Positions 7,896-64,000 of a stretch of 64,000 nucleotides of DNA are shown here, piece after piece. Location of the stretch: the NCBI GenBank assembly GCA_001724265.1, contig MEDY01000150.1:1-64000 (forward strand), in the 5' to 3' direction. Every line of letters starts with the position of its first letter. Positions within the stretch are counted from its first letter, which is position 1. A program made the translations under genes and the position numbers. The notes beneath the pieces are model-generated. The model was given only the letters and a program-made list of their open reading frames with translations, had not been told where the DNA came from and searched no databases. This DNA comes from Rhizaria sp. SCN 62-66 (lineage: Eukaryota).

Positions 7896-7928
<33 letters not shown>

Positions 7929-10900: not shown

Positions 10901-12294
10901 ATCGGCGCCGCGTGTGTCGCTGCAGCCCCCTGTGAGTAACCGCCGGAGCCGGAAGATGGCAAACCTGTGCTTGGATTGGAGCCAAAGCCAGAGCCAGAGC
11001 CGGCGGATGGTGCAACAGCTGAACCGGATGTCACCGTGAGGTTACCTCCAGCAGCAGCGCCAGACACAGAGGCCGAGCCAGAGCCTGCGCCAGAGCCAGA
11101 GGCTGAAGCCGAGGCGGAGGCTGAGGCTGAGGAGGCGGTGGACGCGGATGAGCTGACAGATGGCGCATGCGGAATGATTGACGACACCCACCGCGGCGGC
11201 ACCGCGATGGGCCCGTGCGCGGACGCGGAGCGGCCTCCCTGGGGCGCGGCGCCGGCGCTTGCGACACTGTGGGCGGCAGACGCCGGCTGCTGCTGAGGCT
11301 GCGGCGGAGGCTGCGACTGGGACTGCGTGAGCGGTCGCGCGTGAGAGTGCTGGGAGGGAGCGAGGCTGTCGGCGCTGCTGCTGTGGGGAAGGTCGCTGCT
11401 GCTGTTGTAGCCGAGCGGTGTCGCGCTTGTCACATGAGGATGTTGCTGCTGCTGATGCTGTTGCTGCTGCATTTGCTGCTGCGAAATGGAATTTGGCACT
11501 TGTTTGTTATTGCTGGATCTCATGGCACCCACAACGCCCGACGCCATGCCAGCACCAGCCGCAAAAGCAGACGCAGACGCGGGCGCATTATTACCGCCAA
11601 AGGTCGACGCCACGTGAGCGGCGTTGGCGGCAGCGTCGGTGACCGCTGCCGCAGCTGCAGCAGCCGCAACAGCGGGCGGAGCGGGCCGCACGAACCTCCT
11701 GAAGAACACTGATTTCGTGACAGCGGGGTCAGTAGCAAGTGCGCATAGGTACTTATCAAGCTCGGCCATGCGGCGGCGCACGAACTCGGGTTCTAGCGAG
11801 GATCCGAAGAGTTTTTTGCCCGGGAACGACGGGAGCTTGTGACCGGGTAGGTGCTCACCGAGGCGGCGGTGCAGCAGTACGAAATCGTTGTAGCGGCGGC
11901 CGACGCTCCAAAGCAGCATCGCGCCGCCGCCGGGGGCCGCTGCGGCGCCGCCGGAACCCGGGCCGGAAGCGATGGGCTGAGCTGTGAGCGCGAGCGAGAG
12001 GTTGAAGAGAGAGTACAGTGTATCGGTCTCATCATCGTCGACGGTGTCGTAGGACGTGATGCGCACGCGCAGCGGGAGCGGGGCCGTCAGCGGCATGCGG
12101 TCCAGCGCGGCGATGGCCTGGCGCGCGGACTCGGCGGCCGCGGCGGCAGCGGCGGCGGCAGCGGCGGCGACGGAGACTGAGGAAGAAGAGGTGGGTTGTT
12201 GCGAGGTGTTAATCGTGTTGGGCGGAGGCGCGGGGCCGGTGGTCGCAGGCCGCGTCACACTCGAGGAGGAGTGCGAAGTGGGGAAGTGCGACAT
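244..12294 (-). CDS. Giant (~4000 aa) low-complexity protein: N-terminal PX domain, central non-canonical poly(A) polymerase/nucleotidyltransferase domain, C-terminal LOTUS/OST-HTH-like domain
   Basis: One uninterrupted ORF, probable ATG at 12294 (MSHFP), TGA at 244-246. PX motifs WSVGRRYNDFVLLH..LPSFPGKK..RRMAELDKYL (~12075-11685). NTase motifs HGSYALRTFLPDGDIDL, DISGNQ, GRNHLFKRSVLLLKTW, NIVDPLNTSNNLGRSV (~4520-3520). PLPVGKMG..IKEEYGGLKRLL..HPTVF (~1620-1410) resembles LOTUS. Small in-frame introns cannot be excluded. Confidence 0.8.
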
Positions 12295-13043
12295 CGCACC
12301 GGGTGGGATGTGGACGGTGGGGCCAGCGAGGGTGAAGTGAGCGCTACGGCAAGGACAAGTCAACAAAGTTGCGAGACGGTTTTGTCAAGCTCGAGCGCTT
12401 TTTGATGAAAGGAAGGCTCTGTAGAGGTGAAAGAGAAATTACAGGAGAAATACACGCGCATTGTAAGTATATATATCACGTTTCAATCAAATTCCACAAC
12501 GATTAATCGGAACAATTTTAGTCAGGACCTCTACCAGCTGACAAACGAACTAGGTGTGCGCGAGCCGAAAAGCACTTGCGAGAGCGAAAGATATGATAGT
12601 TGGTTCTCATGTCTGAAACGCCACATAGAAGATATCATAAAGAAATAAAAGGTGTTTGCACTCCCTATAGTCGTGCAAATGACATATATAACTACTGTCG
12701 ATAAGGGTCGTTCAGAAACTCATTGTGGAGATTGGGCTACGTCGCATCTGGCATCGTGCTGCGCCAATTCAGGTGGCCGCCCAAGCAGTCTTCCAACCTG
12801 AACATCTTCATGTGTGTATCGTCGATAGTTACTATTCACCGAAATCCTACAATCAAACACTTTTGACGATATTATATTTCAATTTTACACTCACATCCAC
12901 ACATTTTCCCCTCTATCGCAGCTCTTTTATCTCCGTAGTGCTTCTGGCCACAACGGCTTTCTCCCCTCCACGTTAGTCGCAACACACCACACTGAGCACA
13001 TAAGCGTGGCTCCCGAGCCTACGACTTCCACTCTACCTTCAGC

Positions 13044-25725: not shown

Positions 25726-26140
25726 GATCCCTGTCTAACGCAAAGTGCGTTTAAAGTGACACTTACCCCCAAAAGTGCGATTGTACTACGCAGGCACACT
25801 GGCGAACATGACCGCATCAGGCCGCGTATTACGACTTGATATATAGTAAATCAAGTTCAATAATTTACAATAGCGAACGTATATCTAGTTTAAGCAACAT
25901 TAGTCATGTCAAAAATACAATTGTTTCCTTCAGATCGCTCCTTTTGCCCCGCTCCAGCCACAATCCAGATTTGCCGAGCACATGTAACCAAGCAGCCGGT
26001 CAAGAGACATGCTTGCTGCAGTGTTATTGAATTAGAAGCCTCGTCGTGCACATAGTTTTATCAACAACACGCTAGAAATGCAACTTTTCTAACGTATTAT
26101 TAAAATAATCTTTCTCGAAACCCCATTTTGCCCTGCAGAT

Positions 26141-28387
26141 ATGCTTCGTTTCGGACGCGTCATTCGTGGAACGAGTCGGAGTATCCCGCTCGCCCCCGTT
26201 ACGGCGTCCTTGCGCCGTTCTTCCTCGTTCGCCGCGAGTTTGCACCAGTTGCGCATTGAGCGCGCTGTTGACGACATGCTTGTTGACTGCGGCGTCCCCC
26301 GCGAGATGATTGGTGCCGCCGCGACTTCGCGCGTCGCTTCTCACCGTCTGCCGATCGACGTCTACTCTGCGCCACCTGTCTCGGCCTCGGCCGCGCTCTC
26401 ATCCTTCACCGCGGGGCTCCCGGGCCTTGCGCGCGGCTCTCCGCTTGCTTCCGCCGCGTCTTCGGTGCTCGGCGCCGCCCCCGCGCGCTTCGCCGTGCCG
26501 TCCGCCCCGTTCTCGTCGGAGCCCGGCTCGATGGAGGCCGCCGCCGAGGCCGCCGCCGCCGCCGCCGCCGCCGCGATCGCGACCCCGGTGATCGGCCCGT
26601 CCGACGAGCTTGCGTTCGCGTGGATTACCCCGCGCTCGCTTATCAAGGGCCAGGAGGGCGGCATCATCGCGCGCCTCTTGGTGCAGCCTGACCTGCGCCT
26701 CGTTGGCACTCGCATGTTCTCGCCCTCCGAGGCCTTCGTCGATGAGTACATCAAGATCCACGAGAAGACCTTCCGCCCCGTCGCGTTCAAGCCTTTCGTG
26801 CAGTTCATCGAGGACAACCTGCGTCCTTCCGTCGCGGGCCCTAAGGGCCTCCCGAACCACGTGCTTTTCATGCTCTTCTCCGGCCGCAACGCGCGCTCGA
26901 CGCTCAACCGCACGATCGGCAACTACCTGCCGGACCCGCGCGTCGGCATGGTCGGCCGCACGATCCGCGGCGCGTACGGCGACTTTATCCGCGACGACTC
27001 CGGTCAGATTCGCCACTTCCAGCCCGCGATCGTGTCTGCGTCCAACGACGAGGCGAACGAGCTGTATTTGGAGCTGTTCAGCAAGTATCTTCAGGACTAT
27101 GGCGGCATCTTTGATACCTTCTATGACCGCCTCGATATCCACCAGAACTACCGCACTGGTACGTATTTACTGTGTAATAGCACTAGAACAGCTTTGTTTC
27201 ATCTTTATTATGTCGTTTTGTTATTCATTTTTCATGTCTTTATGTATTTTTAACGTTATCTGTGTGTCTCTATCAATTGGTATGCATTTCACTATTTATG
27301 AGCGCACAAACCCTAACATATGTACATATATACGAATTTGTTTTATTTCGATTGTTTACGTGCTCTATCGCGCAGGCATGGTGATCATCAAGCCCGACGC
27401 CCTGGAGCGGCCCTCGTCCCTCCCTGGCCACATCATGGATCTCTTCGGGTCCACCGGCCTCCACCTCGTCGGCTGCCGCGTCTTCTCGTTCTCTGTGCGC
27501 CAGGCGCGCGAGTTCTACGGCTTCCTTGAGGACGTGTTCGTGGACAAGCTGCGCCCTAAGCTCGAGGCACGCATCAAGCGCGCGCTCGACAAGGTACGGA
27601 TCTCAAAACAAACAAAACACAATACTACGCATAGTTGATTATTGAATAACCTGACTCTGTGTTGCACTGTATAGCTACGCAATAGCTATTTTTCAATGTT
27701 CTATTATACTTATATGTGCTCATATTGTTGATAAATTTTCATAATTTTGTTTTGTAACGACTCAAACAGGAGTTCGGTGACCAGTTCACCATCACCGAGA
27801 CCGAGTACGACATCTTCACCACTGTGCTGCGCCGCAAGATGGCCCGCACCGAGGTCGACAAAATCATCGAGTACATGGCCGGTGTGGCGCCCGCCAGTGT
27901 GCCTGAGAAGGACTGGGACAAGCCCGGACCGGCGCGCTGCCTCACTCTGCTCTACCGCGGCGAGGTACGTGTGTCGCTAATCAGTAGATTCAACAACATC
28001 GATGATATTCTTTGATACGAACTATTGGTTAACTAATGAGCTATATGCAATTGCAGTTGTACACCTAGAGTCAAACTAATATCTCTTGATTTGCATGTTG
28101 TGTACTTTTGTCTTTGTTTCACCCAGAACGCGATCGAGACGATCCGCACCAAGCTCGGTTCCACAGACCCCTCCAAAGCTGCCGTGGGCACGATCCGCTC
28201 CGACTACGGGCGCGACATCATGAAGAACGGCGCGCACGCCTCCGACTCCGACTCATCGATGAAGCGCGAGTGCCAGATCATCGGGCTCGTGCCCGGCGCC
28301 CCCTCGCGCACCAAGGCCATCATCGACACGTGGCTGCGCTACCGCAAGGAGGATAAGGTCGCCGAGAAGACTGTTGGACAGTGGTAA
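26141..28387 (+). CDS. Tandem (two-domain) nucleoside diphosphate kinase-like protein with a probable mitochondrial presequence (exons 26141-27158, 27376-27593, 27770-27964, 28127-28387)
   Basis: Domain 1: ELAFAWITPRSLIKGQEGGIIARL..RTIRGAYG..HFQPA. Domain 2: MVIIKPD..KLGSTDPSKAAVGTIRSDYGRDIMKNGAHASDS, with the catalytic His. Arg/Ser-rich, acid-free N-terminus; three GTACG..AG introns; ends TAA. Confidence 0.88.
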
Positions 28388-29197
28388 GCGTGAGCAAGTA
28401 ACGAAGCGAAACGATTCGCTGTGCTGTGCAATGTAGAGGGTTTGAGGCGGCAACACTACTGTGCTGTGCTGTGATGTTGCCACATACTAACTGTCTTCTG
28501 AAGACTGTTGTGAAGTAGTGTGGCCTAAAGGACGCGATGTACAGTGATAGTGTTGCTGTGGTGGATGTATAAGTAGATGACTGATGTATGCAACTAATAA
28601 TAATTATACTGGGCGATAACTGGCCATCCCTCCGTTTGGTTTTTACGCGAGGATGCCGAGTGAGGCCGCATGAGATGGTCTGGTGACAAGGGAATTCCGG
28701 GTCAGTCTCTGCATTTTTACTTTTGAAAATAGCACGGTCAATATTTAAGATTGATGCTTCTTTGATATGATACACAGATTCTTTCACACATGCCCGTCTT
28801 TGTTGGACATCAACGTGTTATCTTGCCTCTAGACATCTGCGGTACCGAAAAAGTCTAAATGGTTTTGGGTTTTCGACTGTGAGTAAAAGGGGAGTCGGCC
28901 GTTTCGAGTGGCTGCCTAAAACCGGCCACCTACCGCCCCAAGTTCGTGAATATAGAGTTAACGAATCAAATTTGTAAAAGCCATCACGCCGTTTATATTG
29001 CCGAATCTTCAAATGCCTTTAGACGATCTCTGGTCGGACAAACAAAAGGTGTAAAGGAAGAGCTCTTTGAACTTCGCGACGTTGCTACCCGCGAGTAGTG
29101 CCACGCGCCCCATATCTCCGTCTATTCTATTTCAACCATGGTCTCACCAATTGCTTCTCTCAATAACACATTTGTTAATTCTATTCGCATCCTCTAG

Positions 29198-30681
29198 ATG
29201 TCTGAGGACGCCGCCGTGCAGGTACGTTAGTCCTCCTTTTACTCGTGCCCGTTTCTCCCTCAGTTCTGCGCCATCAGCACTTGTAAAGCCCTCTTCTGCC
29301 CGGTTTGGACCCCACCTCAACACTTTCTGAGCTCATACTTGTTGTTTTGTATACGTTTCACTCTTTTGCGTCCGATGCTCCACTCTCTTTTAGGTCGCTG
29401 TCCGCGTACGTCCGTTCAACGGACGTGAGAAGACGCATGGCGCCAAGCGTTGCATCGACATGGCCAACAAGACGACGACCATTTACGAGACGGACGTCGA
29501 CGAGGAGGGTGGGTACAAGGATTTCGCCTTCGACTATTCCCTCTGGTCGCACTACGACATGGCGAACGAGCCCGCCGGCCACAACCCCGACTACCCGGAC
29601 CGCCCCAACGTCGACCAGCAGTACCTCTACGACATGATCGGCGTTGCGCTCCTGCGCGACTTCTGGGATGGCTACGACGTGTGCATGTTCGCTTACGGCC
29701 AGTCCGGCTCCGGCAAGTCGTTCTCCATGACCGGCACGGGCCCCCGTTGCCCCGCCAAGTGGCAGGGCATGATTCCCCGCGTGTGCCGCGGTGTGTTCGA
29801 GCTGGCCGAGGAGACCACCGCCAAGGACCCCAACACGTCGTTCAATATCATGGCGTCGATGCTTGAGATCTACCTTGGTAAGATCTACGACCTTCTTATC
29901 CCCGGTGAGAACTACAACGTCAAGACGCGTGAAGAGCTGCAGATGCAGATGGACGACGTCGCCGGCCTCAACTGGCTCCCCGTGTCTGACACGGACGGCG
30001 TCGGTGACCTCCTCGTGCTCGGCTTCTCCAACCAGTACAAGGCCCCCACGGGTCTTAACGTCGACTCGTCGCGTGGCCACACCATTTACACGCTCCGTGT
30101 CATGCGCACCGTCAAGAACCCCAAGGCGAAGAAGAAGAAGGACCGTGAGCAGACGATCACGACGGCCATGCGTCTCGTTGACCTCGCCGGCTCCGAGCGT
30201 ACCGAAAAGGTGCTCGAAATCACCAAGGCCCAACTCGCCGGTCTGCTGCAGGAGAAGTACAAGAAGGCCTGCACCGTCACGGACGAAGCCATGGCGATCT
30301 ACAAGGAAGAGCGCACCGCCGAGGGTCGTTCCATTAACCAGGCGCTGACCAACCTCGGCCAGTGCGTGAAGCAGGTCGCCAAGTACTCCGAAATCAACGA
30401 TGAGGCCGAGCGTAACCGCAAGATGAACCAGATTGGTTGGCGTACCTCTGCCCTCACGCGTCTCCTCAAGACTGCGCTCAACGGCCGTTGCAAGACCATC
30501 ATGATTGCCGCCATCTCGCCCTCGCTGACCGAGCGCGACGAGACCATGTCGACGATGCGTTACGCCAACAACATCAAGATGATCAAGTCGTGCGCGCAGA
30601 AGAAGGTCGCCGTGGAGACCGAGGAGCAGAAGATGATGAAGATCATCAAGGACCTCGAGGACAAGCTCGCGGCGGCCATGG

Positions 30682-40987: not shown

Positions 40988-41675
40988 TTGTTGCTGTTGT
41001 TGGTAAACGCTGAGTTGTTGTGGTGATGCGCGGGCGCGTCAGGGGAGTCGCCCCAGTCCCAGCGCTCGGTGACAAACGTGAAGCGCGCGTGGAGCACCTC
41101 AAGCACGGGCTCAAGCTGATCGCAGCGCACGAGGACGTAGTCCGACGAGTCCGTGGAGAGGTAGAAGATGGAGTAGCCGCGACGCGAGAGCTCGCCTGAG
41201 ACTGCGGACACGAGTCCCGTTTCGACCTTGAACGAGGTCATATCGCCCTCACTGATCTGCAGCGCGCGCCAGTAGACGGTCTTGCGCGGGAAAAGCGAGC
41301 GGGGGAGCAGCGCGCGCAGTTGGCGCGAGTGCCACTGGTCGCAGGTTAAAGATACGGTGTCATGCGAAGTCTGGCAGTATGACAGGAAGCGCGTCGTCTT
41401 GGGAGAGTACAGCAGCAGCGCCGCAAACGCCTGCAGGTTCGCGACCACAAGCGCCTTAGGCACCTCGATAAACATGAGCTTGTAAGGCAAAATCGTCAGG
41501 AACTGAAGTCGGGGTAAAGTGGAGAATGGGGGGTAAGGTACGCGGCATCGGGAGGTGCGGGAAGGAGTCAAGGCCGTGAAACGGGGATGCGATTATAGAT
41601 AGCAAGACGGACCATGTCAATCGCATCGGGATTATCACCGTGCGTGTAATCCGCGTGCAAATGCGAACCGTCCAT
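38395..41675 (-). CDS. CASTOR/GATS-like tandem ACT-domain protein with large low-complexity inserts (exons 41675-41613, 41502-38395)
   Basis: Two repeated units: M|FLTILPYKL..RFLSYCQT..WRALQI..ETGLVSAVSGELSRRGYSIFYLSTDSSDYVLV and FSLRL..RFLSFTDVAGEVSLLAD..WRIIRL..GFEETGVVYSLSQPVTQAGICPLYISTFHTDFMLV. Intron GTCCGT..TTCAG; ends TAA. Confidence 0.82.
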
Positions 41676-42061
41676 TCAAACTTTGCGCTGACGGACGTAG
41701 ACAGACAAATTCGTCGTGCCTGAACAGCACCATGAAGCGCTTCGAGCCGCAGCAGGCTCGCCCGACCGTGAGATCACCAGTCAGAGGAGGGGGAGCCGAC
41801 CGAATCGCTTTTAGCGAGTCAAACTCAACATAAATTCGCGAAATAGTTTTAAATTGTTCGTTTTCCTAAATTAAGGGTATTTATCTAAAAGGAAACGAAA
41901 CTAATCAACTTAAAGTCCAGCGAAGTTCTGTCTACTCCGCCTCTTGTGTTAAGCGCAACTTGAAACAGATTCGCGACTGCTCTGTGCATCGACAGCGCAT
42001 CCAAACAACTACCTAAAGCCACAGCAGCAACCCGTATGAAAGAACAGGCATTGCTTGATCT

Positions 42062-45000
42062 ATGAGCCATGCATTCCACGCCATCTCTTCCTTCTCAGAC
42101 GACGAGGACGATGATGTTGTCATGGTCCACTCTCCGTCCCAGACTTCTGCCTCGGCCAACAGCACTGGTACCGGGCCCGCTGCGCCGCACGGCCCGCGCC
42201 CAAAGCAATATGTTGATCTCACCGCGCTGCACTCGCCCACACAGCAGCGCGCCCGGCTGACTGGTCCGTTTCTCTCGCCGACAGCTTCCTCGCGGGAACC
42301 GGCGCCACCTCTTCAACAAGAGCTACAGCAATCAGCCTTCGCTTCAGCGCCCGCGCGCGCGCTGCAGCAGGCGTATGCAAACGATAACAGCGAGAACACT
42401 TACCAACAGCCGTTGCGGGCGCCAATTCACGGCCAAACCGGGCTGTTACGTCCTGCAGTAGCTGCGCCAACGCCAGGGCCAAACTTCAAACGCTTCCGTC
42501 CCCAAGCCCACGTCCAGGGAGGACCTGGGGGACGGCCGCTGCTGACGCCGCAGCAGCCGCAACCGCAACAGCAGCAGCCACAGCAACAGTTACAGCAACA
42601 GCCAATGCAACGGTTACAACAACAGCAGCAATAGCAGCCACAGCCACGGCCACAGCAGGTTAGGCAACCGGCGACAAAGACGGAGCCGGGACAGCGCACT
42701 ATTGCCGCATCAACTGCAACCGGGGCTGAGCTTGTGCTCCCTGTGACACCTGCGCTATCATCATCGTCTTCGTCGTCGCTGTCTTCGTTGCTGCAGCCAC
42801 AGTTGCAGTCGCCGCCAGTCGCGTCGCTGGTAGTGCCACCGCCGTCTCAATCAGAGCCTGCAGCAGCAGCCCTCAGCGGGGACGTGTTGCCGCTCAGCCT
42901 AAGCAGGGCGGGAAGCACCAAGCGCGAGCTTGGTCTTCACACGATACAAACATAGCAGACATACGGTCAACTAACGCAGCAGCAGCAGGAAAGCGGCCAG
43001 CAAAGGTTGCCCCAGAAACCGCCTGGATCGCTGGTGAAACGAGAGCCTGGCATTCAGCTACAGGCGCAGCCACCGGCGCAGCGCAGCGCAGCTGCACAAG
43101 TTCTGGGGCCGGGGCCCGGCCTCCGTGGGCGCGGTCGTGGCGTGCTGCTGGTCCGCGGCCGCGGCGGGGCGGGACTTGTGCGCGGCGGCATTGCTCTTAG
43201 GGGCGGGCGCGGCGGCGGGGCCGTGGTCAAGCGGGAGATAATACGCCACCAACAGCAGCAACAACAACAACCAAAGGCCGAATTGCTTCAGGTAGCACAC
43301 GCACAAGATCAGCAACAAGTGCAACAGGAGCTGGCTAGCAGCAACGTGGCTTTCAGTCAAGAACAAGCTCAATATCTGTCAAGCGTGAAACACAGCGCGA
43401 GTCAAACGCAAGCGCAAGACTCACAACAGCAACAGTCGCAAACAGGTGCGCTCGAACAAGATGTGGAACACAGATCGCCCCATACGCAACAGTCAAATGA
43501 ACAGGGTGATGTGCTCTTCCCGCGCATTGAGCCAGTTGCGGACCCGTTGCTTCTGGCGCCTGTTGTCGAAACTGGCAGCGAGGCGCGCGCAGTGGCGATG
43601 GCGGCAGCGGCGGCGGCAGCAGCCGCCACAGCAACGGCTGAGCAGCATGCGCTGCCTGCTCAGCAACACGCCGCATTATCCTCCGCAGATGATCGTGTGA
43701 TTAACACTGCAACTGCGTCGCAGGAGCAGCAACAACAAGAGAACGAGCAAATGCAAGATCAAGAGAGCGTGGAACTTGAAGAAGATGTTTATGATGATGA
43801 CGCGGATGTTGTGATTGAGGTACGTCGTGCAATTGAGAATACTTAATACTCAAAGTCTACATCCCAAAGCTCACCACATAATATAGTACTATATGGTCTT
43901 TTTTTCTGGTCACTCGTAGTTGTATCAACGCTTTTACTCTGCAGTCCGGCGCTTGCAGCCGCGGCCGCTCAAGGGCGCGCGCAGCGCCGCAGCCGCGCCG
44001 GTGCGGTGGCACCAGCCTCTGTGGGATAATTCACCGGTGCCGGTTGTTGCCGCAGAGCTGGCGCGCACGTTTGCGCCCCACGAGGCACATGCGGTACGTT
44101 GAACACTCTATGAGATGTGTTTGATGACAAAAACAGCGTTATCTACTCGATTTCAGTTTACCCCATGATAATCTCAACGGATATTTTTTTGATTTCACAT
44201 TTTCAAACGCCGCGTTTGAAACAGCTGCTGCTGCTACACGCTGACGCGGTTGCAGCATTGCGCACACGTGTCGTCATCGCGGCACAACAGCTAGGCGAGG
44301 GCCGCGCAGACACAGCCTCAGCAGTCACAGCCAGTGACCCTGCCGCGGTTGCTTTGTGGCAGCGCGTGTCGCACGCTCTCGCGACCCCAACGGTTACTGC
44401 GTCGGAGGGGCTAGCGCCCGCAGCACTCGCCACGACGTTAGCCAGCACGTGGCCATCGCCAACGCTGACAGTCGGCGCCGCGGCGGACGGCAGTAGCCAT
44501 GGGGCGGTGATGCATGCGCTTTCGCTAATCGTCAGCGCAGGCGCCGCGCTCGAGCTCCGCGGGCGCCCGCTCTCTTGCGCCACTGGGAGCGCTATTGGCT
44601 CCACAGCAGCAGCAGGTGCATCGCTTGTGCCGATGCCGTTGGTGTTGCGGTCGCGCGCAAGCGGCGCGTTCTTCACACTGTCACTTACTGGCAGCGCAAG
44701 CGGCGGTCTGCAGCAGCAGCAGGGAGGAATTTGGGGTGGCGCAGCGGGTTGGCAAGCGTGCGTGCGAGCCTTAGCTGTTGCTGCAGCGTTGGCAGCAGCG
44801 CCGGCAGTAACTGTGCGTGCCCTGTCTGCGCTCACAACGCAGACACCACCAACAATGTCGATGGCACCAGCGTCAAGGTATAATGACGCTGCAAAGACCG
44901 CCAAGTAGCCAGTGATACGCGCAGAGCAACTACTCGCATTGCCTGCGCCTCGTTCGCAACCAGAAAAGGCCTCTGCAACAACAAGCAGCACAAAAGCAGC

Positions 45001-48000
45001 CCAAGGAATAGCGCTAACATCCGTGTCAACACCCACGCAGGCACCTGCACAGGCACATACGCAGCAGCAAGTTTCCCCCGACAAGGCAGCCGCATTGGGA
45101 CAGCTGATGGCACTGTTGCAGGCCGCGACAGCGCAGGCCGCGGCCTTGGGCATCGAACTGCCTGGTGGCGTCGTGCCCGTTATATCAGCTGGTGAAAGCG
45201 CGGTGACTGCACTCCAGGGAGGCGAGTCGTCATCAACAACACTCGGCGTGCCTGTAACGCCGTCTGCGTCAGCGCCGCAACGCGCGCCGCTGCCGCAAGG
45301 GCAGATCCAGCTTCGACAATCGCATCCACAAAAACGGGGGCACGCTACTGTACCTGAGCTGATGCCGCCGACGCCGCAATCACGGGTCGCCACAACCTTG
45401 CTGACCGCTGCATCGATACGGAGCGTTGTGACTGCAACAGACGCCGCACAGGCGGGCGCGACATGTGTGCTGTCCCCTGGCATGGAGGTGATTGTTGCGC
45501 CAACGCTGCTGCTGGCATCGCTTGCGCGCGCGCTCACTGCTGAGGACACCACAACCGCGCGCATTTCTGCGATAAAGCGCGAAATCAACGCATTCGCAGA
45601 AAAGGCAGCTCCCGACACCAGCGACAATGCAGTGGCTGCGCTCGTTGCACAAGCCGGCGCCGTCGAGCGCGAGGGCGCGCGCGCGGTTGCACTGGCGGGC
45701 GCACTGCGGCGGGTCGCGGCTGCGCAGACGCTGGCGCACCACGCAGGCCAGCGCGCGCGCGACGCCGGTGCGGCCGCGGTCGCCGGCGCGGCTGCGGCGG
45801 TGGCGGCGCTTGGAGCGGGCGAGCTGGATGCGTACGCGGTGTGGGCGCATGCAAGCGCAAGCGCGAGTATGCGCAATGTAAGCAATAATATAAGCGCTGC
45901 TAAGCGCGACGTATATGGTATGGCTGTTCATGATGCAAACAACAGTGAGCAGCAACAACAGCAAGAGCATGGCCCGGGCCCGTTGGCGCGCGCGCTAGGC
46001 GCGGCGACGTCGTTGGCGCCTGACGGCATCGCTGCGTTGCAGTCACTCGCACAGGCGGCGCACACCACGGGAGCGTCGGCTGTTGGTGGGGCTGTGTCTG
46101 CAGCCACTGTGGCCGCGACAGTCGTCGCAGTGCACTGCGGCGGCGGGCTCAGCGGGGGCCACACACACTGGGATGTGTTGGTGCTGCGCGTACGAACGCC
46201 TGCGTCCGAGTCTGCTGCTCTGACCTCGGCAGCAGCGAGTGCGGGCACAAAGCGCGGACACAGTGCTGCGCGCGGAGGTCGCGGTCACAGTAGCGGGGGA
46301 GGCGCTGCGCAACCAAAGTGGACGCTCATCGCAGTCCCACTGCCGCACCCGCTGCTGCACGAACAGTCAAAGCTGCAATCATCAGATGTCACAATGGCAA
46401 CGCGCGCAGTGCGCGCGGCAAGCATTGGTGTTTGTTGTTTTCGACAGACCGCAAAGATACCGACAGCATCATTCCAGGCAGGAGTTGCAACAGAGAGTGA
46501 CATGTTGCATGCGCTAAGTCAGCTCAAGCCCGGGGCGGTTGTGACGGTCACATCAGCGTTGCCGCATCGAATCGGCGAGTTGCCGCCACAAAGGCGCGCA
46601 ATCGTGACCACGCCCCCACAGCCTCCAGCACCAGTTGCCGACGGCTTAGATGCTGCAGCGGCGCTGGCGCGCTGGGCGGTAGACGCTACGGCTCAAGTCG
46701 TGCTGTTGGGGGACGGTAGTGGCGCTGCCATTGACTGGGTACGTTACTAAACACACATATCTCGACGATCGCAATGATATGAATATCTGCACAATGCATC
46801 TGGTCTAAATTCAAATGCATTCTTGTTTGCTCAACTCCTTGTGTTCTTAGTCAGAGCCACCAGTAACAGTGCAGCTTATGCAGGTTACAGTAGGCGCACT
46901 AGAACAACTCAAGCCCACTGATGTAACGCAGTTGAAAACGGTGCAGCCACACGCCGGCTTATATAAAACTAATCGATTTGGTTTAGATGCAGGCAACAAC
47001 GCGCTGTCAGGCTCTGCAAGTGCATTGCGGCGGCAGCTCTTGCTGCAGTCTGGGACAGCGTTCGCAGCTCTTTCGACTCCGCGCGCGGCGTCGTTGCTAT
47101 CTTTGCTACTGCTCCGTCACATACAACCTGCACATGCATCGGGTGCAAGCGCTTTGCATGCTTCAGATGCTACTGCCACACAGTCTTGCTCGACAGCAGA
47201 ACCAGCATGTATCGCCAAACAATGCTGCGACAAGTTCGCGGCACTTGCAACCTTCCTGGGTTCAGTGCCCGCGGCTGCGTCGGTCAGCAACGCGGCACGT
47301 GAGGCTGCAGCTGCGTGCAATGCATACGCCCGCTGGGCTAGCACTGCGCCTGCGGGTGTCGCAGCCGCAGTGCCGCAAAGCGCGATACCGAGTGCAGCAG
47401 CGGCGGCAACTGCGGCGCTCGCGCGCCTGCGAGCAGCGCTCTCTGCCGTCTCGCACCCCACTGACACTCTGACCAATATTCATGATAGCAGCGCTGCCGG
47501 CGCGCTGTTGGAGCTTGAGCCTGCGTTGTGGGCCGCCGTCTGCGCGCGCGCCAACGCCGCCGAGGCGCTCGCCGACTGCGCGCGCGAGGCGGACGCCGCG
47601 GTCGCCGGCGCCGTGGCGGAGGCCGCCGGCGCGCAGACCGGGACCGGGACCGCGGGCGCCGTGTGGGGCCGTGTCGCGGCGGCGCTGCCGCGGCCGGTGC
47701 TCGACACTGCGGAGGCGCTGGCGGCCGCCGCGCTGGGCGAGGTGGACGAGGAAGCTGTGGCTGTGGCGACGGAGGCAGTGGAAGCAGCGCAGCAACGGCG
47801 CTAGCGACTGCGGAGGCAAAGCAGCTCTGTGTCGACAGACGGTGATGGTGCACAAGTGCCACATAGGGAGCACAGCAACCTGTTTGAGCTCAGTAAAAGA
47901 TTCGCTAGTTCATCATGTGTGTTGGTTGATGCGGGAAGTGATCGTGAGCAAGAGTACTCCGCGCAGACAAACGCATCAAACTCTGTCCGACACTCTGTCA

Positions 48001-48311
48001 CGTGCCTTGCGTTACGAGAAGCTGTAGACGCCGCGGCAGCACTTACTGCGCTTAGTAGCGGCTTTGAAAATGCTACCAAGCTTGCCAGCACAGCATCATG
48101 TGCGGGCGTTTGTTGCTGGTACACGTGCGGCCGCGACAGTGGCAGGTGTGATGGTGTGTGGCGCAGTGACATACACTGCGCGAGCGCTGAGAGGGGTTAT
48201 ATGACTAGAAATAACAAAATCCCTGTCTGTATTGTGTATGCACTATGTGGCGCAATCGAATCAGCGATGGCCGCGGTCAGTGCAATGTTGTGCGGTGGTG
48301 GGCATGATTGA
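42062..48311 (+). CDS. Large unknown protein (~1950 aa; Gln-rich and RGG-containing N-terminus) with four in-frame TAG codons (exons 42062-43819, 43920-44093, 44225-46738, 46851-48311)
   Basis: ORF-track pieces 42062/42734/43007, 44117/44912 and 46869/47829 share a frame within each exon and are separated only by TAG (42632, 42953, 44906, 47802). Three phase-0 GTACGT..AG introns join the exons; ends TGA. No family recognised. Confidence 0.72.
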
Positions 48312-48783: not shown

Positions 48784-50553
48784 ATGGCAATTGATTGGGA
48801 CGATACATTTGCTTATAGCACGTTCAAGGTACGCCGTTTTCGCGACTTTTGTCAAATACATTGCCGCAACGCTTGGTAGCTGACTCCAAAGTGTGCAGTC
48901 TCGCTTCTGGCTCTCATCGTCTTTCTTTTTTTTTTTCTTCTTTTTTTGTACTTGAATCTCACCTCACATTCGTGTTCATACATCTTAATGGTGATGTCTG
49001 TGTATACCACCCGCTCTAGGTTGTACGCGTGCGCGACCGCTATCTCGGTATCCTGCGACTGGTGCTTGTCCTGCTCATCGCCGCCTATGTCCTGGTCAAG
49101 GTCCTCCTCATCGACAAGGCCTACAACGCCACCGAGATCCCCATCGGCACTGTCCGCTCCTCGCTCATGATGCCCGAGGCCACGATCGACCGCGCCGCGC
49201 TGTCCTATTGTCACGGCAACACCGCGGGCGGCGAGCCCTGGCCGTTCCCGGCGGAGGACTACAATTGCGCGATCTGGGACGACCAGTACGTCCGTTTCCC
49301 CGCCGAGGAGGTCAACGGCCTCTTCATCACCTCGCGCGTTCAGGAGGTCTCGCAGACGTACAATTGCGGCGACGGTGACATCACCGCGGCGTGCCCCAAG
49401 CCTTTCTCGAACGCCGGCGACCCGACGACAAGCTTCATCGCCGGCGTCGAGCAGTACACTCTGGGCCTGCAGCACTCGTTCCGCTCCCCTCTCTTCTCGC
49501 TCGACTCCGAGTCAACGGTCTACAAGGGCTCCTCCAACGCCTACAGCGGCGTCATGCTCGACTTCAATGGCAAGGAGGTGATGAAGTTCCCTGTGGACGT
49601 CACCTCCGACAAGCCTGACGTGTTCACGCTTGGTGACCTGCTCAATGCCGCCGGCGCTTCGCTGTCTGATCCTTCGAACGGTACGCTGCATTTGCGATAT
49701 TTATTTGAGATATACGACGATGAGTCAGTCCGAATAGTGAGGTGCCTGTAGTTTTCAGTGTACATGCGAGAATATTTTCTTTAATTGCATCGTATTTGTC
49801 TCGATTGACTCTTTATCTTGGCTCATTGGTACATTTGTGTGACGTTCACTGCAGACCCTAAAAACTCGCTGCGCTACTCCGGCATGGTGCTCCTGGTGAC
49901 GGTGGACTACACCAACGACGGCCACCCGTCGTCGACGCGCTACACCTACCGCGTTGCCGCCATCCCCAACGCCGACTACAAGATGTTCGAGGTCCAGTCC
50001 GGCGTCAACAACGGCCTGCCCCGCCGCAACGCTGAGTACGTCTCCAGAGCAATTGGAGTATGACGACAACAATGACGGATGTTGTTGAATAGTTAAAGTG
50101 TGCAATCACATGATTTTACAACTGCAATCTAGTACAACTGGACTATACTTATCATCCTTGCTTTATCTTACTTCGATGTCTTATGTTTTGATTCGACTTG
50201 TTTTTAGCCGTCGCTCTACCAAGCGCGCCGGCCCCAAGATTATCTTCGTCGTCTCCGGCAAGATGGTCCGCTTCGACTTCCAGACCTTGCTGATCCAGCT
50301 CGTCTCGGCTTTGGGCCTGCTGTCAATGGCCACCATCGTGGTCGAGATGCTCATGCTCTACGTCATGCCGCTGCGCAAGCGCTACAGTGACGCCAAGTTT
50401 GAGTCCACCGTCGACTTCTCAGACGTCCGCGACGGAAACGAGCAGCTGCTCGCCGTCAACTAGATGGACCAGGCGGTCAGTCTCGACAACGCCGCTGTCA
50501 ACAACAACGGCAATGCTTCCAGCGGGCTCTACCAGCCGCCGAGTGACGTCTAA
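48784..50553 (+). CDS. P2X receptor-like ATP-gated ion channel, Dictyostelium/algal type (exons 48784-48828, 49020-49680, 49855-50035, 50208-50553)
   Basis: IDWDDTFAYSTFK|VVRVRDRYLG + TM1 + KAY; LRYSG; GPKIIFVVSGKMVRFDFQTLLIQLVSALGLLSMATIVVE (TM2); YSDAKFE (YxxxK). In-frame TAG at 50461 is followed by 29 coding-like codons to TAA 50553; under the standard code the gene would end at 50463. Confidence 0.88.
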
Positions 50554-50870: not shown

Positions 50871-53800
50871 TTAAATAACAGTTGTTTCGTCGACGCCGTT
50901 CGCAGCCTTGACAGTCTCGCGCCAAGCCCACTTCGCGAGCTCCGTGGCGACAAGTGGCGAGACCACCGGGGCGGCAGCCGCTCGCAACATATCGCCCCAC
51001 GCCTCGCCCGTCGCGCCGCTGCACGCGGAACTCAAGCCTGCTGCCGTGATGAACGCGGTGGTCGCAGGCGGCAGCGCAGTCAACAGTGAGCCCGCAGTGT
51101 CTGCACCGACACTGCTGTTTTCACTGCTTGAGTTGTCCGTTTCAGCAGCCGCGAGAGCTTCGGCGGCGTCAGCGACTGTGCGTAGGACGTCAGTGATCAC
51201 GTGTGCGCGGTGCTGTTGTAGCAGCAGGCGCGCGCGCAGCGGGCCCGCGGGCAGTTGCCGCAGCACCTCATCCAGTGGCGTGCCCGCGCGCACGCGCAGC
51301 GGCGCTGCGCGAGACTTCGTCGAAGCAGACGCGGCACCCGGGGCGGTGTTTGTTGCGACAGCCGCGGAGTCTGCGGCGGCCCAGCGCGCCTCGAGGAGCG
51401 GCAGCACGGCCAGTGCAGGCAGCCCGCGCGGGTGCGCCAGTCCAAGAGACTGTAACGCTGACGCTGCAGCGGAGGCGCTGCTCTCGCCCTTCGACGCGCC
51501 GGCGGCCTTGGGTGTGCTCTTGCCAGCGCTGGCGCCCAACTTGTCATCGCTAGTGGCGCTATCAGCGGGGGCAAGCTGCGCCAGTGCGCGCCTGTCGCCG
51601 TTGCTGAGGAACACGGCGTCGACCGCGTCCTCCTTGGCCGACGTGACGCGCGTCGCCAGCAGCGCGACCGCCGCCCAGCCCGCGCGCGCCGCCCTCCCGC
51701 CGCGGCCGTCCGCGCGCGGCACCGCGGACGCGAACAGCGGCTGCAGGGCGCGCGCCGCGCCGATCAGCGGGCCCAGCGCAGAGCCCAGGCGGAGGTCCAG
51801 CGCGGGCAGATCCTCGCACAGCCGCTGCAGCCGCCGCTCGAGGTTCAGCACGCGGGACCGCGCATCTTGCGCGGCAGACTGCGCCGGCGCCGGCTGCGAG
51901 CGCTGGAGCTGGCGCCGCTGCAGCTTCGTCAGAGGCACGGCGGGGGCTGAAGCCTTTTTGGTGCCCGCTTTCGTTTGGTGATGTGACGGCGCCTGTGCAG
52001 CGGGGTTACCTTTGTTCAGTTTGCTGTGAATTGAGCGTTCCTTAGCGGCGCGCGCGGCTTCCTGAATGGCATCGTGCTCAGCCTTAGCCAGAGCCTTCCG
52101 CGCCGCTACTAGCGCGCGCTCAACGGTCGCAACATCATCGTGCTCGACGTCGCCGTCATCGTCCGCATCGCAGTCGGCGGTATCAAAGCCGACATCGCTG
52201 CCATGTTTGTGAGCTCCATCATTCGCGCAGTCATTTGCGGTGTGTGTGGCGGCAGTTTGAGTGAACTCAGCCAGTACGCTGTCAAAGCTCAGCGACATCG
52301 CGGCCACGGCCCGGGCGCTGGCGTGCGCCCAAGCCGCCTCGTCTTGGTCACTGAACGCCAACACGCCGGGCAGCCGGCCCTGCGTCGCGTCGGTCTGAGC
52401 CGCCGCTGTAGCAGAGGAGGCGAGGAGTGGGGGCAAAAGATAAAGCCGCTCCAGGAAATAAGCGTAGCTGCGCAGCACAGACGCACGTGTCAAAGGGGAA
52501 ATACCTGCAACGGAGTTGGTTACAACTTGAACATCACGAGCACTCACAACTGATGCTGTAATAGATGGCACAGGCACTGCAAAACTCGCTAGAGCGTGCG
52601 CCGCGTCGGCCTCAGCCACCGCGCCAACCTTCAGTGCAGGAACCCCGCCGTTGGTGCTGACAGCGTTGCATTCGGCCCCGGCGCGGGCAGCGTCGGCGGC
52701 GGCGGCAAGCGCAGCCACCGCGGCGTCGAAGTACGCCGGAAACATCGGATCCCCCTGCGCGGCGCGGCCGACCATGACGGCGCCGAGGTGCTCCGCGCCC
52801 AGCAGCGAGGCCGAGGGCGCCGCGCCGCCCGAGCACGCCGCCGCGGGCTGCGGCGGGGGGGAGAAGCCGGCCGCGGCGTCGACGGCGGCAGACAGCGCGG
52901 CCGGGTCGAGCGCGCTCAGCGTTGTCGTCACCGTCGCTGCCTCTGCAGTGCTGCATGCGCTTGACGCCGCGTGCGTGACTGTGCGGTGGATGTTGTGGTA
53001 CTGGAGCGGCGGCCGCGACATGAGATGCCGCAGCGGTGCCGGGATCTGTCGCTCTGACAATCCACCTGTAGTCGACTCGGATGCGTCTGTCTGCTCAATG
53101 TCACCGGGTGAACTATCGTCGTCGGGTACAGTCTCTGCTGCTGGCGCTGCCTTGACGTGAGGTGTTGGCCCCACAGAGGGAACGGCCCACAGCCTGTGCA
53201 GTGCTGACTCGACGGCAGACACACCACCGTTATAGTCCAACCGCACATCGTGGGGCCGAAGCGCAACGTTCACGTCCATACTCACCGTCGCATCGGCATT
53301 GGCGGTCAATGTTTCCGCTGCGGTGACGGCAGCGCGGAGCCACGACGGCGCGCCGGGCGCGCGCAGCTCCGGCGCCAGCACGCGCGACGCCCTGTACAGC
53401 TCAACAGCGAGCGCGGCGTCGGCCAGCGTCTCTGGCGCCGCACGCGAGCGCACAAGCGCCGCCGGCGTCGGAACCGCCGCGCACTGCTCGTCCTCGTCCT
53501 CATCCGCCGCGGGCCGCGTGGTCGCCGCGCGCGCGCCGGCGGCGTCGGCGGCGCGCGCGGCGGCGTGGGCGGCGCGGCCGTCAGCGCTGCGCTGCGCGTG
53601 CGTGCGCGTGTCGGCCGCAGCGGCCGCGGCAGCAGCGGCAGCGGCGGTGGCGGCGGCGGCGTCGGCAGCGGCGATGACGGCCTCGAACGGGCCCGGTGGA
53701 GGCGGAACCGTCCCCGCTGCAAGCGCAGACAGTGCAATCGACGCAATTCGCGCGTCCGCAGCTGCGTCATCAGCGTTCGTGATTACATAAGTGTTATTGT

Positions 53801-55019
53801 TATCCAGCTGAGGTTGAGGCAACCAACCCCGCGCGACGGCTTCCTTGGCTAACAAAGGCAAGCGCTGCGTCGTCAAAACGTGCAGAAACCCCCTCAAATC
53901 GGCCCTCGCGCGCGCGACGAACAGCGGGCGCAGCGGCGGCACCGAGAGGTTGTCCTTGGGCGAGTGCCGCAGCAAGGCCGTGCGTGCGTGGGCGACGACG
54001 TGCGCGATCCCCGCCCGCTCGCAGAGCCCGCAGAGAAAGGCCAGGAAGGACGGGTAGTGGCTCGGCGCGTCGACGCCGAGGCGGAATTTGGCTGATAGTG
54101 GGACGACAAAGTGATCGTGATCAGTGTTCGTAGCGTTTGTCTGTCCCTGCGCGTGCGACTGTAACTGTGACCGCGACGGCGGCACCAAGTGACTGTGCGC
54201 CGGAGCCGTAAGCGCGCGCTCCAGCGCGGCCCGCAGCAGCGCAACCTGGTCGGGGAAGCCGGGCGCGCGCATTAGCGCGGCGCCGTGCTCGCCGGCCTGC
54301 GCGGACGAGGCCGGACAGCCCATGTTGAGGTTGACCTGGTGTGCGCCCGCCGCGAGCAGCGCCAGCGCCGAGGGGAAGAGGAGGCGCGCGGAGGAGCCGG
54401 AGAGCTGGGCCACAGTAGCGCCGCGGGAGCGCAGGGACCCGGACACGCTGCCTAAGACGGGGCGCGTCTCAGAAGAGCAAGAGTTGGGCGATGAGAGCTC
54501 AGTGGAGGCAGAGCTGGAAGAGCTGTAGCCAGAGTCGTTGGCAGCGCGTGCACTGGGAGGCGCGGACAAGGGCCGGGAGAAGGCGCCAGTTGGTGAGGGC
54601 AATGCGGAGGCTCCAGGGTATGTAACAAAGCGCTGAGAGTGCTATTGTGCGTCAACACTGCGACCGCTGCTGCTGGTTGAGCCGTTGCTGCCAGCGTTGC
54701 AGAGAGTGTCACCATCGAGTGCTTCAGGGAAGATAGCGCAGAACGCGCTGCGGGCGACGTTCGGAGACCGGAGGACCTGCATGTCAATAAGCATGGGCGT
54801 GTAAAGGTCCGTACGCAGCGAGGCAAGTCGCAGAAGCTGGCGGAAGTGCAAGTCGGTGACGTCGACCATCGGCGCCACGGCCAGTCGCGGCGGGGCGCGC
54901 ACTGGGAGGGGCCGCACGGACCGCGTGGCGCGCTGTGGAAGGGCCGCAGAGGCCAGGCGCGCGGGGCACCGGCCCAAAAGTGGTGCGGTGACGCGGAAGC
55001 GCGCGCGCAAGCTCAGCAT
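50871..55019 (-). CDS. tRNA-dihydrouridine synthase, DusA-type, probably organelle-targeted, with an in-frame TAG at 54644-54642
   Basis: VAPMVDVTDLHFRQL..LYTPM lies before the TAG. QLSGS, NLNMGCP, GAALM, KFRLG, HARTA..SPKDNLSVPPL, YNGG and VMVGRAA lie after it in the same frame. Arg-rich N-terminus MLSLRARFRV; ends TAA. Confidence 0.88.
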
Positions 55020-55167
55020 GAAGCGCTGCGAATGAGCAGAGATAACAGTAGACTCTCGGGGCTCAACGGGCCTGTGCGGTGTCGAGGAGAGCAAGCGATA
55101 AGGAAAGTGATAAGAATAGCGTCAAACGTCCGTTAATAGAGATATAATAAGTGTGGCGAATATAAGA
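55020..55167. promoter_or_regulatory. Very short divergent intergenic region, putative bidirectional promoter
   Basis: Only 148 bp separate the divergent start codons of the DusA-like and MED21-like genes. No specific promoter element recognised. Confidence 0.4.
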
Positions 55168-55985
55168 ATGGAGGATGCATATTCTACACAAATGCAGGCT
55201 CTTGTGCAGACCGCCAACGACCAACTCCACGCTGTCATTTTCCACGCCAGCGCCTTCCTCAACTGCACAGCGGCGCTGACCACGATGCCCGAAGTGGACC
55301 CTGTCAACGCACTCGAGACCTCGCTCTCGCTGCCCGCAGCCGACGCGCCCGAGATTATCCGGTTCTCCCGCGCCTTCGCGCCCCCCGGCGCCGCGGCCGA
55401 CGCGGAGGAGGAGGCCTCGCAGGCCGCGCTGCAGGGGGTCGGAGCCGAAGCCGTCGCCCACAGGGACGCCCTGCGCGCCGCCAACGCCGCACTGGACACC
55501 TCGCTGCACGCCATCGACCGCCTCGCCGCTGCAGGCACGGCTGCCGATGCCGCTGCGGCGCAGGGCGGTGCGGAGACAGCTGCTGTGGCCCGACCGGCAG
55601 GGCTCAGCGATGCCGAGTATATCGCCCACCTCGCCAAGCTCAAAAATGAAAAGCTGCAGGTACGTTTTCTGTCATACGAAAGCGAAAAATCGGACGAGTA
55701 TTATAATCATGCTGCTATTTATTTGATGTATCTCACAAAATTTATTTGTTTTCTCTTGTGTCTTTGTGTCGTTCTTTCGCGCCGCAGAGGATTCGCGCTG
55801 GCAATGCGGCACTGACGCGCGGGCTAGCGCGCTGCACCGCGCTGCGGGCGCAGGTCGCCGCCGCGCTCGCTGTGCCGCAGCCGCCGCCGGCCCCCACGCC
55901 CGCCGTTGCGCCCGCGCCCGCGCCTGCGCCTGTGCTTGCGCCAGGGACGGGGACGGGAGCGGTCTCTGCTGCTGTCCCGCAGTGA
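55168..55985 (+). CDS. Small helical protein, possibly Mediator subunit MED21-like (exons 55168-55659, 55788-55985)
   Basis: MEDAYSTQMQALVQTANDQL..IDRL..GLSDAEYIAHLAKLKNE loosely resembles the Med21 layout; intron GTACGT..CGCAG; ends TGA. The gene itself is likely; the family call is weak. Confidence 0.5.
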
Positions 55986-62099: not shown

Positions 62100-62750
62100 T
62101 TACTCCTGGACGGGGAAGGAGAACTCAACCGCGGAGCGGGTGAGGCGGTTGTAGACGGCGGCGAAGGACTTGAGCTTGTCCTCGGTCTCCTTAGCATCCT
62201 TCTTGTCGACGAAGACCTTAAGGAGCTTGGACTGGTCAGCACGCACGCGGGTGCGCTTGCCGACGATGGAGGAGGGGAAGACAATGTCGTCGAGGATGGC
62301 GGCGTGCACGGCAGTGAGGGTGCGCGACTGGGGGCGAGCGATGCCCTTGTACTGAGCCATCTGTGATGATGTAGAGAGGAGCAAGCAAGAGCAAAGCAAG
62401 TGCGAGTGCGCACAGATGAGAAGGGTGAGCGCGGGATGAGAATAGCAAAGCAAGACAGGTGCGGATGGGGATGTAGCTGAGATAAGGGTGAAGAGAAAGA
62501 TGTGGAGAAACGTACCTCGTTGGTGAGGATGGTGCGCTGGGCAATGAAGACGAAGTGGGTGTTGGCGAACTTCTTCTCGAGCTCGCGGGAGAGGCGGGGC
62601 TGGATCGACCTCCTTGGCCGCGCAGAAGTGAAGGGCCTTGAGGCCCGCGAGCTCAGGGGTCTCCTGGAGCTCGACCATAGCCTTAGCAACGCTCTCCTCG
62701 AAAGAGGAGACGGCCTTGCCGTTGGCCTTAACAACCTTGTTAGTCGCCAT
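62100..62750 (-). CDS. RPS7: 40S ribosomal protein S7 (eS7), with an apparent internal deletion and frameshift near 62604 (exons 62750-62516, 62360-62100)
   Basis: FEESVAKAMVELQ..AAKEVD in one frame; IQPRLSRELEKKF..FIAQRTIL in another; exon 2 RPQSRTLTAVHAAILDDIVFPSSIVGKRTRV..FAAVYNRLT; ends TAA. Confidence 0.9.
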   Translation of the reverse strand: MATNKVVKANGKAVSSFEESVAKAMVELQETPELAGLKALHFCAAKEVDPAPPLPRAREEVRQHPLRLHCPAHHPHQRGTFLHIFLFTLISATSPSAPVLLCYSHPALTLLICAHSHLLCSCLLLSTSSQMAQYKGIARPQSRTLTAVHAAILDDIVFPSSIVGKRTRVRADQSKLLKVFVDKKDAKETEDKLKSFAAVYNRLTRSAVEFSFPVQE

Positions 62751-64000
62751 TAGGAAGAGAGGCTACAAAGCAATAGGAACGTCGGAAGCAAAAGAGAGTA
62801 TGGAAAGCAGTGAGCATGGGCATGGACGCAACAGACACGAAAGCGGGGGTCCTCAGACCGATTGCGAGGGTGGCCAGAGTGAGCTCTGTTGTCCCGGTCA
62901 ACAAGTGAGCACAACTTCGCATCACAAAACTAGGGTAACGAAGGCGTCTGGCAATAACGCAAACCCACTGTAGGATAGAATAATTCCTGTTTTATCATAG
63001 CAAATCATCCCTAGACGCATAGTCCGCACGCCGGATCCATAAAGACTGTCCTCAATCCGCGCCTCGACCTCACACACTGGGCCCGACTGATGCCCGCGGT
63101 GCGGCGACTCGGCTAAGGGCCATCTAAGTACCCCAGAATGTATTTCCCCCTTTTCGCGAACCGGGTCCAGGACGAGCTGCCTCAAGCTATTATCACGGAA
63201 GGTTTTTAAAACAACTATATCGTCGGATGACACCATTTTTTAACTATGGGGATGACACGAAGTGTACTATCATGGCAATTTATCACAACGTCTGGGTCGC
63301 GATATGAAAGCGGCCAAAGGGGGGGAAAACTCGACTGTTGGTCGACACAACTATTGCATAACACATCTCTAATAGCTCCCTCAAAACGATTGGTGGACAT
63401 ACCTCTGAGAAGTCCGATCTGCGGAGCAAGTCTATTCCTGTTATATTTTTTCTCTTCAGTCCTGCATATTGCTGTCTTAGATCGATAATGTGGGTAATCA
63501 CTGCTTGTGTCGTGTGAACAGGATTTGATGCTGTGTTAATCGTTCATCGTCACCAACATCAGCTTCCGCCTCGCCTCGTTCGTTCCCATGATGTCGATTA
63601 ACTGTGACGTCCACCCACCTTGCTCGTATCCGTCTCTCTTCCATGTTTGGCTGTGTCAACTGCAACTCGTGCTGCCTAGCAATCTTGCTCTCAATAAACT
63701 GAGCAACGTAGCAGATCATGTCGCACTTCATCAGTGATCTACTCATGCCAGTGCGCATCTATAGTTGGCAGATCGATTGAGCTGCTGATGTGTGTGTTAA
63801 GGTGTTGCTTGCGTTCCAAAACATCCAATAAACACACAATCGACAACAAAACAGAAATGAGTGGCAATGTGCTTTGTAAGACAACATCTGTTGTACAACA
63901 GATCAAAGCAAAACAAAAATGTATTAATTCAATTAAACGTTGCTAGTAAGGATACTATGTAACATAAGGTATATTGATCTTGACAATTTCTCCGGCACAA

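Follow-up and report, generated by a model that had tools for sequence, protein, structure and literature searches.

The closest described counterparts of the locus reported here are nuclear codes in which UAG alone has become a sense codon. The fornicate Iotanema spirale is described as reading UAG as Gln and keeping UAA and UGA as stops (PMC5304391; PMC11687900), and UAG-only codes are reported, in the account cited here, from the uncultured rhizarian exLh (Leu), from Scotinosphaera (Ser) and from Protocruzia tuzeti (Gln), as well as from phyllopharyngean ciliates, where UAG alone is reassigned to either Leu or Gln (PMC11687900). Context-dependent codes, with stop codons inside genes, are attributed to Blastocrithidia and Condylostoma (PMC12153298; PMC12152300; PMC5304391). 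Here we analyse a 64 kb stretch of eukaryotic DNA (referred to below as the window), in which the reading frame of a DusA-like protein (Dus) is split by an in-frame TAG. We consider it probable that the nuclear code of this organism uses TAG as a sense codon and TAA and TGA as stops, and that the Dus gene is intact.

As far as the cited accounts go, the code proposed for the window resembles that of Iotanema in that only UAG is reassigned and UAA is kept as a stop, and Gln is weakly hinted at in the window as well. The two differ in that the window has a GC content of about 62% and introns starting with GTACG, and in that the amino acid proposed here is a tentative one. The codes of exLh, Scotinosphaera, P. 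tuzeti and the phyllopharyngeans, as they are described, likewise have UAG alone as sense and UAA as stop; the sequence contexts in the window, however, indicate neither the Leu of exLh nor the Ser of Scotinosphaera, and TAG is much rarer than in those codes: three genes have about 1.6 per 1000 codons, and the rest have none. The window shares with Blastocrithidia and Condylostoma the occurrence of stop codons within genes, but in the descriptions of those organisms UAA and/or UGA are also sense codons, whereas in the window TAA and TGA are found in frame at none of 3747 codons and serve to end 19 genes. Our literature search, which was limited in scope, found no UAG reassignment in a wastewater eukaryote.

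The window combines its high GC content with AT-poorer intergenic stretches, and sequencing runs X1-X4, which are bioreactor, wastewater and activated-sludge metagenomes, contain it at a word share of 0.67-1.00. Its source is an uncultured eukaryote whose DNA is GC-rich and whose genes have few introns each, and which occurs in bioreactor and wastewater metagenomes. The encoded proteins include a kinesin with an FHA domain, KIN17, a cap methyltransferase-like protein (G-patch and FtsJ), a dual-specificity phosphatase, CBS-domain and ACT-domain proteins, an MFS transporter, a proteasome alpha subunit, ribosomal protein S7e, an NDK-domain protein, an LSm protein and a P2X receptor. The NDK-domain protein bears a long N-terminal extension, and the proteasome alpha exon scores best in PDB against mammalian alpha-1 chains, which gives no lineage placement. 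Some ciliates have small gene-sized chromosomes; unlike these, the window carries about 19 genes, as well as introns, over a length of 64 kb or more. The coordinates of the features discussed below are collected in Table 1.

Table 1. Positions in the window of the genes, Dus blocks, introns and start sites referred to in the text.
Feature	Position	Strand	Details
4046-codon open frame	244-12384	-	Strong codon bias, no TAG, no intron detected
NDK-domain gene	26141-28387	+	ORF 26093-27253 and NDK ORFs 27758-28387; three GTACG introns
Gene AB	42062..48311	+	Exons 42062-43819, 43959-44093, 44225-46738, 46851-48311; stop TGA
P2X receptor gene	48784..50553	+	Exons 48784-48828, 49020-49680, 49855-50035, 50208-50553
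Dus (DusA-like) gene	50871..55019	-	ATG 55019, stop TAA 50873-50871; 1382 codons with read-through
Third Dus block, VPLSAKFRLG...AHAR...PPLRP	53889..54107	-	Residues 305-377; 3B0V 147-218; from 3B0V alignment
Second Dus block, AQLSGS...NLNMGCP	54270..54413	-	Residues 203-250; 3B0V 82-129; catalytic Cys codon 54317-54315
Variable insert with TAG	54414..54758	-	Residues 88-202, 345 nt; from 3B0V alignment and composition
In-frame TAG	54642..54644	-	Dus codon/residue 126
N-terminal Dus block, PRLAVAPMVDVTDLHFR...LYTPM	54759..54893	-	Residues 43-87, 5' of TAG; 3B0V chain C 24-68; Pfam profile 2-43
Example introns	27159-27375, 29222-29393, 46739-46850, 55660-55787		
Starts preceded by a pyrimidine-rich tract	13059-13064, 26135-26143, 29195-29200, 55020-55027, 62750-62765		

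The TAG at codon 126 is the sole stop in the Dus frame before the terminal TAA, and the frame stays open for 1256 codons after it. Its codon context on the minus strand is GAC GCA CAA TAG CAC TCT CAG. The motifs named in the initial annotation flank the TAG without a change of frame, with AVAPMVDVTDLHFR...LYTPM on the 5' side and AQLSGS, NLNMGCP, AHAR and VMVGR on the 3' side; the barrel motifs DYNGG and VMVGR are found far downstream in the same frame, with long Ala-rich inserts between. The conserved residues, the catalytic Cys among them, presumably have the roles familiar from Dus enzymes. The N-terminal block, the Cys motif, the Lys and the HAR block are thus all present in a single frame, although a polypeptide containing all of them requires that the TAG be decoded.

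Profile and structure comparisons lead to the same picture. The 125-aa piece encoded 5' of the TAG matches positions 2-43 of PF01207, the Pfam profile for dihydrouridine synthases (E 3e-5, 23.7 bits), and the piece encoded 3' of it matches positions 54-124 (E 7.5e-15, 55.3 bits). The read-through protein, with the TAG entered as X, scores 74 bits (E 1.5e-20), and this protein and either piece alone exceed the Pfam gathering cut-off of 20.4 bits. When compared to Thermus thermophilus Dus, which is of the DusA type (PDB 3B0V / 3B0P), the protein aligns to 3B0V in the three blocks given in Table 1 (E 1.6e-19), which have in common APMVD.TD.HFR, then NLN.GCP with its Cys, and finally K..LG...HAR...PPLR. 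Residue 126, with 3B0V blocks aligned on either side of it, therefore falls within an insertion of some 100 residues that separates the first block from the second. The window protein differs from its Thermus counterpart in size, with 1382 residues against 350-363, and has in addition this TAG-containing insert, the long inserts rich in Ala and an N-terminal extension rich in Arg. Residues 1-50 include many Arg and no acidic residue, a composition which suggests that they are probably an organelle presequence. Among NCBIfam families the top match was DusA (NF008774 / TIGR00742), at scores that fell far short of the cut-offs (105.4 vs 269 bits and 83.4 vs 397.2 bits), and the DusB family scored 34.8 bits; the DusA scores being below the curated cut-offs, DusA-like is therefore a best-match label that implies no subfamily membership. 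The initial annotation had claimed that the TAG separates the N-terminal from the catalytic blocks of one frame, and that this frame remains open for more than 1200 codons; motifs, Pfam and 3B0V agree on the former, and the codon count bears out the latter. It had also proposed a Dus HMM alignment of the read-through product, in which, as described above, both sides of the TAG match.

Relatives of the protein are few. A word-based search of 5.8 billion proteins returned only two proteins: the window's own P0001 (1191 aa), which begins past the TAG, and a single relative, P0002 (1074 aa). The latter is 40% identical to Dus over 565 BLASTP columns (E 5e-83), begins opposite Dus M51 and continues unbroken, by way of an insert shorter than that of Dus, as far as the catalytic blocks. 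The Dus TAG falls opposite a poorly matched P0002 column, in keeping with the earlier view that it lies in a variable insert and does not identify the amino acid. HMMER searching of 1.84 billion representatives gave 929 matches at E<=0.001, with only P0001, P0004 and P0002 at E<=1e-30. P0004 corresponds exactly to Dus residues 1-125, so the gene caller has cut the Dus protein at the TAG. Nearly all of the 148 other HMMER matches listed have two to four matched stretches, which is consistent with the N-terminal block normally residing on the same chain as the catalytic blocks. At the DNA level, a scan of metagenome contigs found one distant locus, L001 (30% identity, 2131 bases). Genome contigs gave no match to an exact 36-mer, and tblastn confirmed none of the 28 stretches that matched the pattern of the alignment query; in viral contigs none of 20 stretches was confirmed. 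The comparison with relatives thus comprises one relative's protein, P0002, and no relative's DNA.

The Dus TAG is a genuine DNA sequence. Contigs from runs X2 and X3, which gave identical figures and are possibly one data set filed twice, span 54154-55436 with no differences. A contig from X4, which belongs to another study and carries SNPs of its own, departs from the window at 54620, where it extends for 57 letters or more to either side, and shows no difference at the TAG. A sequencing error, which had been named beforehand as something that would undo the case, and an assembly error are both ruled out by the presence of the same TAG in contigs of all three runs. The difference at 54620 is a G in X4 in place of the window's A; read on the coding strand, this turns TAC into CAC (Tyr to His) at the eighth codon past the TAG. 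This nonsynonymous strain difference fits a low constraint in the Dus insert. The strains compared are nearly identical, with 18 listed differences in 18.5 kb.

Even with the TAG present in the DNA, the mRNA might lack it, if an unusual, GC-rich intron were spliced out of the insert or if U-to-C editing turned the codon into CAG. The TAG does lie within a dispensable insert, and among the contigs listed from the polyA RNA library X5 none bridges 54435-54659 or crosses any of the six TAGs of the window. The two X5 contigs that flank the site (54660-55026 and 54092-54434) nevertheless align end to end with no differences and with neither overhang nor joint, which speaks against this explanation. 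In several bins that X4 covers, for the most part intergenic or intronic ones, X5 has little or no depth; these holes prove nothing by themselves.

The properties of the introns in the window also argue against removal by splicing. From ORF junctions and domain continuity we located 11 introns: three each in the P2X gene, gene AB and the NDK-domain gene, and one each in the kinesin gene and the gene starting at 55168. All 11 start with GTACG and end with YAG. The 10 that were measured are 112-217 nt long and far more AT-rich than exons, with a GC content of 0.31-0.43 (0.37 when pooled). By contrast, the Dus insert has a GC content of 0.63, with 0.55 in its lowest 100-nt window, and no usable donor. 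The sole GTACG nearby (54814-54809) is inside the conserved LRTDLYTPM block, and the residues downstream of it still align with Thermus Dus and P0002. In the part of the insert that follows the TAG, the in-frame codon score is 0.24 per codon, the best of the six frames, with the others at or below 0.05. These data uphold the statement of the initial annotation that the site has no intron-like AT-rich tract or typical donor, and an intron at this position, which it had listed as a refutation, is unlikely. The same mechanism, be it splicing or editing, would moreover be needed at five further sites. We therefore regard an RNA-level change as very improbable.

Nine of the donors read GTACGT, the others being GTACGC (in P2X) and GTACGG; so uniform a GTACG donor is unusual and could help to place the lineage. 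Several start codons have a pyrimidine-rich tract ending in AG 0-12 nt on their 5' side (Table 1), and the KIN17 and kinesin starts read TAG ATG. Judging from the sequence, such tracts might serve as acceptor sites for 5'-UTR introns or for trans-splicing. The TAGs at 13059, 18867, 21729, 29391, 60374 and 62765 are intron acceptors or lie 5' of starts, and are not in-frame sense codons.

The five further sites are in two genes next to Dus. Gene AB unites ORFs 42059-43846, 44114-46750 and 46851-47804 as exons of one gene, joined by three phase-0 GTACGT introns. Its 1955 codons contain four in-frame TAGs (42632, 42953, 44906, 47802), and neither TAA nor TGA. In exon 1 each of the five other frames has 14-19 stops, and after the last TAG 168 open codons precede the terminal TGA. 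The gene has a weak codon bias, is rich in runs of Gln and Ala, and matches no Pfam family. A protein search with exon 3 found only P0003 of the same organism (100% identity) and no homologue outside it; P0003, a 575-aa piece, is the only form in which gene AB appears in the public protein collection.

The P2X receptor gene is in frame over 410 codons, with TAG 50461-50463 as its only internal stop. This TAG is located in the cytoplasmic tail; at the other end of the protein, the N-terminal motif YSTFK|VVRV is interrupted by the first intron. Past the TAG there are 29 codons with a GC3 of 0.80, up to the TAA at 50551-50553, after which GC drops to 0.43 in an AT-rich tail. The 29 codons obtained a codon-model score of 21.6, compared to a 30-codon mean of 12.9 (sd 8.1) in coding frames and -14.3 (sd 13.5) off frame. 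For the last exon a single relative was found, P0153, which has 63% identity and is encoded on a contig of 577 bases, and whose own tail continues for about 30 residues past TM2 and is not alignable with that of the window P2X. In a screen for stop codons with coding-like surroundings, a length of 50 codons flagged nothing and was too strict, and a 30-codon version was then used. On both strands of the window it passed 1 of 648 TAGs (that of P2X), none of 730 TAAs and 1 of 1699 TGAs, the latter a marginal, off-frame case at 41568-41570. The Dus TAG failed this screen, with 8.5 upstream and -0.4 downstream.

Together the Dus, AB and P2X genes contain six TAGs, no TAA and no TGA in 3747 codons. 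If TAG is taken as sense, the terminator is TAA in 11 of the 19 genes and TGA in the other 8, and never TAG. The next in-frame stop past these 19 terminators is reached after 1-90 codons (median 11), and past the six TAGs after 29, 106, 168, 296, 613 and 1256 codons (median 232). The contrast is significant (one-sided Mann-Whitney p 4.6e-4); this test and the count of zero TAG terminators, itself from a small sample (n=19), are partly circular, because the TAGs were chosen for their continuing frames.

Under the standard code, Dus and gene AB would have to be young pseudogenes or strain-specific nulls, and P2X would end at its TAG. For Dus alone this reading draws on the near identity of the strains mentioned above and on the position of the TAG in an unconstrained insert. 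It meets several difficulties in the three genes as a group. TAG makes up 53-55% of one-step nonsense mutations arising at random, and for six nonsense codons in 3747 to be all TAG, with no in-frame TAA or TGA, the probability is about 0.025 (0.023-0.027). Exon phases are intact across six introns, and pseudogene decay is disfavoured because four nonsense codons should bring frameshifts, none of which are seen. All the Dus motifs that were checked (the APM block, Cys, Lys, HAR and MVGR) are intact, and the P2X tail is coding-like in composition from the TAG up to the TAA. A pseudogene, the remaining refutation offered by the initial annotation, is thus unlikely in view of the five additional TAGs in two neighbours, the lack of in-frame TAA or TGA and the lack of a frameshift, and we judge that the standard code is quite improbable here.

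It could also be that TAG has a dual or leaky role, being still a stop that is read through in these genes, by programmed readthrough or under a context-dependent code of the Condylostoma or Blastocrithidia type. That TAG is rare and occurs in only three genes would agree with such a role, as would the CAG that comes after two of the six TAGs. TAG followed by CAR resembles a known leaky readthrough context. The four TAGs of gene AB, on the other hand, would multiply a low readthrough to almost nothing, the six downstream contexts have no common motif, and none of the 19 genes needs TAG as a terminator. Leaky or context-dependent reading is in our estimation improbable.

We thus return to a sense reading of TAG, and to its pattern of use. 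The six TAGs are confined to three adjacent genes at 42-55 kb, and the other genes of the window, about 12,700 codons by a rough tally, have no in-frame TAG (Fisher p 1.4e-4). It follows from this clustering that TAG is rare and unevenly used, a pattern that may be that of an uncommon codon, possibly one of recent capture, and one that leaves few sites by which to judge the code. Each of the six TAGs is located in weakly conserved, variable or low-complexity sequence, and because the sites are weakly conserved, no TAG fixes the amino acid or selection on the codon. There is a weak hint of Gln in the surrounding sequence. Three of the six TAGs adjoin Gln codons, and the TAG at 42632 is within a CAGCAA repeat array, the unit of which has CAG at this place; the repeat position fits Gln, but equally any tolerated change one step from CAG. 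Neither Leu nor Ser is suggested by any of the six contexts. ARAGORN found no tRNA gene in the window, and no Rfam family was found in it.

The decoding that we infer would proceed as follows. At Dus codon 126 the ribosome would read TAG with a tRNA able to pair with UAG, and so join the first Dus block, with its APM motif, to the catalytic part. Dus would then be a single, intact gene, whose product is a greatly enlarged DusA-like tRNA dihydrouridine synthase that is probably targeted to an organelle. For such decoding there would have to be a matching tRNA(CUA), as well as a release factor no longer able to recognise UAG.

Whether the source is an undescribed lineage, common in wastewater bioreactors, that has undergone a young, UAG-only stop-to-sense change in a GC-rich nuclear genome and is caught at an early stage of codon capture, is a proposition for which we hold belief and doubt to be evenly balanced. 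On this view TAG would still be rare and limited to weakly constrained stretches, namely an enzyme insert, a receptor tail and an orphan gene. One practical consequence concerns annotation, since gene callers that apply the standard code cut the proteins of this organism: in the public collection Dus is present as pieces of 125 and 1191 aa, and the P2X tail and gene AB are truncated. Most stop-codon reassignments have been found in AT-rich genomes. If the proposed code is true, the lineage would be especially useful as a GC-rich genome in which TAG is still rare, and it would provide another independent case for how UAG escapes recognition by the release factor without UAA doing so.
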